Part shown: positions 10,440 through 27,342 of the stretch, in pieces | Layout: every line of letters begins with the position of its first letter | How positions within the stretch are numbered: position 1 is the first letter of the stretch | Source of the DNA: Heterodontus francisci | Taxonomy: Eukaryota | Assembly (NCBI RefSeq): GCF_036365525.1 | Contig: NC_090416.1 | Location: 16,774,945 to 16,821,350 of the forward strand | Length of the DNA: 46,406 bases | Direction: 5' to 3' | The notes under the pieces: model-generated | The model's input: only the letters and a program-made list of their open reading frames with translations | What the model was told of the DNA's origin: nothing | Database searches by the model: none | Made by a program: the position numbers and the translations under genes

Positions 10440-10767
10440 TATGTAGCTGCTGAGCCATCCCCGGCAGCACAGTAATAGACGGCGGAGTCTCCCGGTTCCA
10501 AGCTGCCGATGGTCAGAATGTGACTGTTACTGGAGGTGTCTCTGGAAGGTTTAAAACGGTCCGTGAAGCCGGTGCCTCGATAGATGCTACCATCTTTATA
10601 GTGCACTAACACCCCCACCGGAGCCTCCCCGGGTCTCTGTCGGTACCAGTACATGTAGTAACTGCCCACATTGCCGTTCTGCATCGCACACTTTAACTCG
10701 GAGGTCTCACCGGCGGAGACTGGGTCTGAAATTGGGGTCTGATTGAGGACAGGAACCGCCAGGACAC
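10440..10767 (-). CDS. Ig light-chain V exon, cluster 1 (germline, unrearranged)
   Basis: GVLA-VPVLNQTP...LKCAM...WYRQRPG...DRF...LEPGDSAVYYCAAGDGSAAT; acceptor TTGAAG| at 10769-10768. Confidence 0.96.
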
Positions 10768-24726: not shown

Positions 24727-25055
24727 TCAGTCGGAACAAGCGGTGGAGCTGATGGTTTTGAGGAGAGGTGAGCTCAGAGAGCCGTGGTCCACACTGCAGG
24801 TATAGCTGGAGCCCTTATTCCAGGCAGTGGCGGGGACTCTCAGGTAACTGCTCAGGCTGTAGCTTTGATCACTGTCCGTGGACACAGTGCCTGTGGTCAC
24901 CCCGCTGTCTGTCTCTTTATCATCCACTCTCCAGAGAACCCGCACGAAACCCGGCTTAAAGCGGCTCACCAGGCAGGACAGAGTAGCCCATCCGGAGTCT
25001 ATTTCTTCCGAGGAAGGAGGGAGCAGGAGAACTGATGGTTTCCGATCCTCACTAC
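24727..25055 (-). CDS. Ig light-chain constant exon, cluster 2
   Basis: Protein identical to cluster 1 C; intact acceptor and stop. Confidence 0.96.
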
Positions 25056-26385: not shown

Positions 26386-26422
26386 TCCGTAAACTCAGGG
26401 CGGTCCCAGGTCCGAAGGTAAA
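26386..26422 (-). CDS. J segment, cluster 2
   Basis: FTFGPGTALSLR, GTAAGT donor. Confidence 0.96.
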
Positions 26423-26461
26423 CACAGTGCAGTGTTTTAATGGGACGGGTCACCTAAAACC
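26423..26461 (+). other. J 23-RSS, cluster 2
   Basis: CACAGTG-23-CCTAAAACC. Confidence 0.92.
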
Positions 26462-26775: not shown

Positions 26776-26803
26776 AGTTTTTGTATTGCCCTGTCTCACT
26801 GTG
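26776..26803 (-). other. V 12-RSS, cluster 2
   Basis: CACAGTG-12-ACAAAAACT. Confidence 0.96.
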
Positions 26804-27132
26804 TATGTAGCCTGCTGAGCTATCCCAGGCAGCACAGGAATAGACGGCGGAGTCTCCCGGTTCCAAGCTGCCGATGGTCAGAATGTGACTGTTACTGGAG
26901 GTGTCTCTGGAAGGTTTAAAACGGTCCGTGAAACCGGTGCCTCGATAGATGTCACCATCTGTATAGTGGTATAACACGAACACCGGAGCCTCCCCGGGTC
27001 TCTGTCGGTACCAGCTCATGTAGTAACTGCCCACATTGCCGTTCTGCATCGCACACTTTAACTCGGAGGTCTCACCGGCGGAGACTGGGTCTGAAATTGG
27101 GGTCTGATTGAGGACAGGAACCGCCAGAACAC
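26804..27132 (-). CDS. V exon, cluster 2 (distinct sequence; YSC in FR3)
   Basis: ...YYMSWYRQRPGEAPVFVLYHYTDGDIYRG...AVYSCAAWDSSAGYI; 329 nt. Confidence 0.95.
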
Positions 27133-27293: not shown

Positions 27294-27342
27294 CTGTTAA
27301 ATGGAGTAGCAGGGTCCCCAGGAGATACATTACTGCAGCCAT
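27294..27342 (-). CDS. Leader exon, cluster 2
   Basis: Same 49-nt leader with GTGAGA donor. Confidence 0.9.

Follow-up and report, generated by a model that had tools for sequence, protein, structure and literature searches.

Adjacent-base differences among germline light-chain V genes of the horn shark are probably old, selected contact-codon variants

Germline V genes of a light-chain array in the horn shark, Heterodontus francisci, differ by blocks of adjacent bases, and these blocks are probably old, selected variants of contact codons that were built mostly by single-base changes and that short tracts of gene conversion have reshuffled among 43 V genes. The earlier note on this DNA had likened the blocks of one gene, V2, to shark somatic hypermutation (SHM), and had offered two explanations: that AID-like mutagenesis or templated transfer had reached the germline, or that strong diversifying selection and microconversion had rewritten whole codons.

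Units of the array and the differences of V2

The window, i.e., the whole 46,406-nt stretch of DNA that was analysed, contains three units, each about 16 kb long, arranged head to tail on the minus strand and consisting of leader, V, J and C (Table 1). The main array in contig C46 (G000) comprises 36 V-J-C units at 16.27-16.87 Mb, and a further 7 V genes at 15.04-15.19 Mb of C46 bring the total to 43. A heptamer closes V in 43/43, none of these 43 sigma-2 V genes on C46 is fused to J, and 34 of the 43 are distinct over codons 1-106. The 12-spacer recombination signal is intact in V1, V2 and V3, and J has a 23-spacer signal; with its signal present, V2 is unrearranged. C varies little across the 36 units (pi 0.0056), and six of its seven variable codons are synonymous.

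By sequence comparison, the array is the horn shark sigma-2 (type I) Ig light-chain locus. In a protein search the window proteins matched horn shark light chains; the array protein P0005 co-clusters at 90% with P0077, a record named Ig sigma-2 light chain from Heterodontus francisci; and relatives of the array proteins include a skate type I chain. The translated CDRs, delimited by IMGT-style boundaries, are 8 (NGNVGSYY) and 7 (HYTDGDI) residues long, the lengths given for sigma-2 in excerpts of PMC5985310. The horn shark light-chain locus type, with V and J split, is reviewed in a section of PMC5192425.

Table 1. Features of the window (positions count from its first letter)
Feature	Position	Strand	Basis
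V1 exon, copy A31	10440..10767	-	exon comparison
C exon, unit 2	24727..25055	-	unit alignment
J segment, pi 0.003	26386..26422	-	unit alignment
J recombination signal: nonamer, 23-nt spacer, heptamer	26423..26461	-	sequence
V recombination signal: heptamer, 12-nt spacer, nonamer	26776..26803	-	sequence
V2 exon, sigma-2/type I light-chain V, copy A32	26804..27132	-	exon comparison and translation
1-nt indel close to V coding end; present in 20/42, absent in 22/42 V	26812..26812	-	paralogue comparison
Block AGC/GAC, Ser/Asp, CDR2; AG/GA swap	26952..26953	-	codon counts
Block GTG/TAC, about L49; composite, seven codon states	26969..26971	-	codon counts
Block GGG/TTC, about L46; composite, one 2-nt jump left	26978..26980	-	codon counts
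Block TAC/AGC, Tyr/Ser, about Kabat L34; AGC 25, TAC 16, CAC 2 of 43	27015..27016	-	codon counts
Leader exon, no variation across 36 units	27294..27342	-	unit alignment
V3 exon, copy A33	42425..42752	-	exon comparison

Several pieces of C46 depart from the standard unit. At C46:15156009-15163067 two leader-V-J sets precede a single C exon (V-J-V-J-C), unlike the usual single V-J-C per cluster, a layout that would permit a second rearrangement. A C exon without V or J lies within the main array (C46:16638248-16638576), and a J-C without V (C46:15114400-15116948) and a solitary C (C46:15201261-15201596) were also found; such pieces are signs of unit turnover. Right outside the array, a divergent V of 56% amino-acid identity (C46:16884855-16885118) has a frame in which YYCAIW runs directly into GPGT, and may be germline-joined. 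Between the type I clusters, at C46:15052178-15095457, are three Ig-like V domains with roughly 30% identity.

V1 and V3 are identical in V, and V2 differs from them by 16 substitutions (27128, 27016-15, 26980-78, 26971-69, 26961, 26953-52, 26933, 26838, 26827 and 26821) and one 1-nt indel, an extra G at 26812 that V2 alone of the three carries; the hand count in the earlier note was exact. Its description also held in that 10 of the 16 substitutions lie inside the four named adjacent-base blocks, only two changes (27128, 26933) are synonymous, FR1 and J are without change, and C is near-invariant in the 36 units. Its placement of the blocks stood for AGC/GAC, which is in CDR2, but GGG/TTC and GTG/TAC belong to FR2 and not to CDR2. 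Aligned with a human lambda structure, the blocks fall at about Kabat L34 (TAC/AGC), L46 (GGG/TTC) and L49 (GTG/TAC). The indel falls within the zone usually trimmed during V-J joining. At 26837-26839, V2 reads YSC where YYC is conserved, as do 4/42 V. As the earlier note had supposed, the variants are germline, since several unrearranged copies, and independent records too, share each block state.

Codon states, flanks and hypermutation signatures

Both 3-nt blocks are composite (INTERMEDIATES; codon states in 43 V genes). GGG is one step off TGG, the state of 35/43 genes, and TTC is one step off TAC; at L49 the states are GCC 20, GAG 6, GTG 6, TAC 5, TTG 2, AGA 2 and AGG 2, and GTG is one step off GAG. 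The AGC/GAC codon is AGC in 31 of the 43 and GAC in 8, with four rarer states. For L34, neither AAC nor TGC was found among the 43 V genes, and no intermediate codon was found in the horn shark genome for TAC/AGC, AGT/GAT or AGC/GAC. Thus the suggestion that intermediates among paralogues would point to ordinary selection is borne out for the 3-nt blocks, which decompose, while 2-nt jumps without an intermediate persist among the 43 genes.

The codon states seen across the 43 genes were linked by fewest changes into a network, and 25 contact-type codons, a set based on approximate position numbering and enlarged by two codons because CDR2 is long, were compared with the rest. Multi-base edges made up 9/53 of the edges in contact codons versus 0/37 elsewhere in V (p 0.009). 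Confinement to codons was incomplete: all nine within-codon jumps are in contact codons, yet a few blocks span codon borders. Two doublets lie over codon borders (27035-34 and 26822-21), and a 5-nt run in copy A27 includes two synonymous changes.

Residues that would correspond to intermediates occur in other species. Among 74 non-Heterodontus V domains, L34 is N in 13 and C in 2, the AGT/GAT codon encodes G in 11 and N in 10, and the AGC/GAC codon encodes N in 9 and G in 2. A contig of another species has GGT, an AGT/GAT intermediate, alongside the horn shark majority codons TGG, GCC and AGC. In organism B contigs the second L34 state was AAC in one reading and TAC in another, and was not counted as intermediate. 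Coverage of CDR2 was scant in runs X10 and X15, and the 3 reads of run X17 at the A27 run were uninformative.

Raw adjacency is higher in V than in the flanks. Adjacent differences amount to 10/16 in V, versus 34/295 (V2/V1) and 28/249 (V2/V3) in non-coding DNA, and over the 630 pairs of 36 units the adjacent fraction is 0.59 in V versus 0.137 in non-coding DNA. The raw fraction in V is high because contact columns are so densely polymorphic (53%, versus 9-13% elsewhere). In a flank control, repeats and the edges of indels were masked in the 36 units, and only columns covered in at least 30 of them were used. When pairs of variants without an intermediate were counted there, adjacent pairs numbered 13/33 versus 24/115 at 2-6 nt in V (odds 2.46), and 41/242 versus 68/932 in non-coding DNA (odds 2.59). 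The excess of adjacent sites is therefore equal in V and flanks, and a tandem signal special to V, as the earlier note had it, is lost. Doublets occur along the whole unit, with about 23 extra per about 1,430 variant alleles (about 1.6%, an arithmetic estimate), and background doublet mutation of the ordinary kind may explain a few of the blocks. The non-coding doublet excess includes GC>AA and GA>TT, doublets linked to polymerase zeta.

In shark SHM, according to part of the text of PMC5931798, tandem mutations make up 38% in framework and 51% in CDR, and hotspot G/C is favoured 4.3-fold. We compared polymorphism at WRCH/DGYW G/C with that at other non-CpG G/C. Hotspot versus other counts were 8/16 versus 13/19 in contact codons (ratio 0.73), 0/19 versus 6/84 in the remaining V codons (ratio 0), 11/148 versus 50/454 in introns and the V-J spacer (ratio 0.67), and 110/893 versus 365/2918 in distal DNA (ratio 0.98), i.e., no WRC/AID hotspot enrichment in any of the four. 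Nor was diversity raised beside V, where intron and spacer pi was 0.014-0.028 versus 0.023-0.034 in distal non-coding DNA; 8% of proximal columns were in blocks versus 6% of distal non-coding columns. Germline purifying selection could depress the framework tandem count, yet not the intron count. In sum, SHM-type mutagenesis by an AID-like activity reaching the germline is not supported: hotspot bias was absent, the adjacency excess in V equalled that of the flanks, and the 3-nt blocks decomposed.

Swaps of AG and GA account for 2/15 V doublets versus 0/43 non-coding doublets, and AG-to-GA is a frequent tandem change in human SHM, as excerpts of PMC8781386 describe; the spectrum in this comparison is human, not shark, and a two-transition route explains the swaps equally well. 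Asp is found in 43 and 31 of the 74 other-species domains at the two swapped codons, and the direction of the swaps is likely Asp to Ser. At 26952-26959 and 27014-27016 the commonest horn shark states are AGY serines, where other species mostly have Asp or Tyr; the AGY-serine majority could reflect selection for mutable codons.

Selection, exchange and the age of CDR2 motifs

Diversifying selection with microconversion, the other option of the earlier note, gained support from both amino-acid change and exchange. In contact codons piN is 0.168-0.186 and piN/piS is 2.5, a conservative value because pathway averaging inflates piS, and the rest of V has a piN/piS of 0.48-0.60; leader, J and C are nearly fixed across units. 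Four gametes were seen in 145/666 V site pairs, with an Rm of 9, i.e., at least nine exchange breakpoints in 318 nt, and linkage (r2) is 0.33 at 1-10 nt and falls to 0.04 past 3 kb. V1 equals V3 over about 490 nt despite differences at 236/11,195 non-coding sites (2.1%), which points to a conversion tract. Recent whole-unit duplication was rejected as the source of this identity, as the flanks give V1 and V3 different nearest neighbours. A27 has the most divergent contact codons among the copies listed, with ordinary flanks.

Frameworks and CDR2 have different affinities. At non-contact positions, identity is 87-100% among the horn shark V genes and no more than 83% to any other species, and a framework tree places them in one group (97/84). 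In a 10-residue CDR2 segment, horn shark genes are down to 20% alike, and a single horn shark group is rejected (AU p 0.013) by a CDR2 tree of 21 columns with long branches, in which A27 joins Heptranchias (99/92). At a threshold of 9/10 residues, chosen post hoc, four of the 20 CDR2 motifs have a match in a ray or distant shark (permuted mean 0.37, p 0.002); a permutation test on summed motif sharing was marginal, with p 0.039 in one run and 0.057 in another. Before the motif tests, 6/39 non-horn-shark proteins in one and 10 proteins in the other were left out for indels or pattern mismatch. The motifs LEHQPD.DIY, LLHETD.DIY, IRHDPDNYI and IRHDTD.DIF recur in rays and distant sharks; the motif of the A27 run has a 9/10 match in Heptranchias, and its YIARG ending is found in rays too. 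Both states of each V1/V2 block are found among the 74 shark and ray domains. The CDR2 motifs of V1 and V2 themselves match other species at 7/10 at most (p 0.67 and 0.995) and look like mosaics. Since the sharing is seen at the protein level alone, convergence could also have produced it, and it is about an even bet that CDR2 motif lineages have been kept since before the shark-ray split on frameworks homogenised within each species.

Simulation was used to ask how many jumps single-step change would leave. With a young, neutral-shaped genealogy 3.1 jumps were expected (P(>=9) = 0.005), and with deep branches 5-15 times longer 7.0-9.4, compared to the nine observed. No single setting fitted contact and other codons jointly (joint P 0.004 or less), so older lineages are needed at contact codons, a split that was picked after the data were seen. 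In the model, old contact-codon lineages with young frameworks would suffice for the observed jumps.

A mechanism along these lines starts from the observed gathering of variation, with an amino-acid excess, in about a dozen contact codons. Units swap sequence in short tracts, as the mosaics in V show, with conversion a more probable route than crossover. Through this exchange the leader, frameworks, J and C would stay young and alike, and selection would retain several motif lineages, some of which, going by the protein sharing, would predate the split from other sharks and rays. Finally, two old states would come to resemble a single tandem event because intermediate codons vanish with time, for which the simulation indicates that age would be enough.

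Competing explanations and known systems

It is rather unlikely, in our judgement, that the variants are young, with ordinary germline doublets giving codon jumps favoured at contact positions and cross-species sharing due to convergence. The non-coding doublet excess reported above is real, and the marginal summed test of motif sharing fits convergence; however, a 2% doublet rate on the young genealogy gave 4.2 jumps (P(>=9) = 0.021), and multi-residue motifs recur in rays and distant sharks. Least credible of all is that the blocks are assembly errors or somatic lymphocyte variants in the sample. Although no read or contig listed was shown to span a complete V gene, the block states are each repeated in several unrearranged copies, the horn shark records P0004 and P0003, not tied to C46, carry FVLY and KM, both L34 letters are present in another sample's raw DNA reads (4/5 and 1/5), and the A27 run is matched in high-depth, short-read contigs of run X1.

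AID active in germ cells and coupled to tandem repair of the shark type, or transfer from V sequences mutated in the soma, could also write SHM-like blocks into the germline, and would account for nine jumps without intermediates among 43 genes, the two AG/GA swaps, the two cross-codon doublets and the 5-nt run of A27. RAG-like activity in shark germ cells, with joining there, has been proposed (a section of PMC2193156), and would lend such a route plausibility. Against it, hotspots are not enriched and the DNA beside V is not more diverse; a simulated 20% tandem rate over V gave 7.4 jumps outside contact codons, where none was seen; none of the 43 V genes is joined to J; the A27 run sits in the motif shared with Heptranchias and, in its ending, with rays; and AG/GA is the easiest two-transition route, probably running from Asp to Ser. 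We consider this origin of the blocks very improbable, and V-wide germline mutagenesis is largely refuted. It is equally improbable that tandem hypermutation reaches the germline only as short, selected contact-codon tracts, by germ-cell AID or by conversion from somatically mutated V, in which case the germline array would store products of past immune responses. Old, selected contact-codon variants remain our preferred explanation, with some doubt left by the two SHM-type AG/GA swaps and the absence of intermediates within the horn shark.

The horn shark type I or sigma-2 V-J-C clusters (sigma-cart; NS5 in nurse shark) are the same locus as the array studied here, and its structure is no different. 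The full 43-gene array, its variant pattern and the cross-species CDR2 motifs were not found described in a literature search, a weak one based on titles and the opening of abstracts and covering few subscription journals. The array is a clean example of germline diversity storage, in which near-identical units differ almost solely at contact residues in a cluster-type locus that cannot pair V with the J and C of other clusters.

Shark SHM with tandem substitutions was reportedly described by Lee et al. in 2002. It resembles the array in that V genes show stretches of 2-5 neighbouring changed bases (PMC5931798, in part). In SHM, as that part of the source presents it, 38-51% of changes are tandem, in frameworks and CDRs alike, with a 4.3-fold hotspot bias; the horn shark blocks, unlike these, are found only in contact/CDR codons, have no hotspot bias, are inherited and are common to many copies. 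A soma-to-germline feedback for V genes has been inferred from SHM-like unrearranged germline V arrays, according to excerpts of PMC4763540. The SHM-like reading of the horn shark blocks makes the same inference, for which the hotspot, flank, framework and cross-species age tests were unsupportive here. An apparent case of hypermutation entering the germline is thereby removed, and the array shows how the tandem signature of sharks can be imitated when dense selection at a few codons is combined with conversion.

What deserves following up is how old the CDR2 motifs may be. If the motifs shared with rays are common by descent, they would be MHC-like polymorphisms over 200 million years old, and would suggest that ligands or heavy-chain partners have been conserved. 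In MHC peptide-binding codons, with their trans-species polymorphism, and in rabbit VH a-allotypes, old multi-base differences at binding positions are reshuffled by conversion and are common across species. The horn shark array resembles this patchwork in its multi-base codon differences at binding positions, probably old and reshuffled by conversion, but its variants are held by tandem paralogues rather than alleles, they lie at antibody CDR2 and contact sites, and their sharing extends to rays, at the protein level only.
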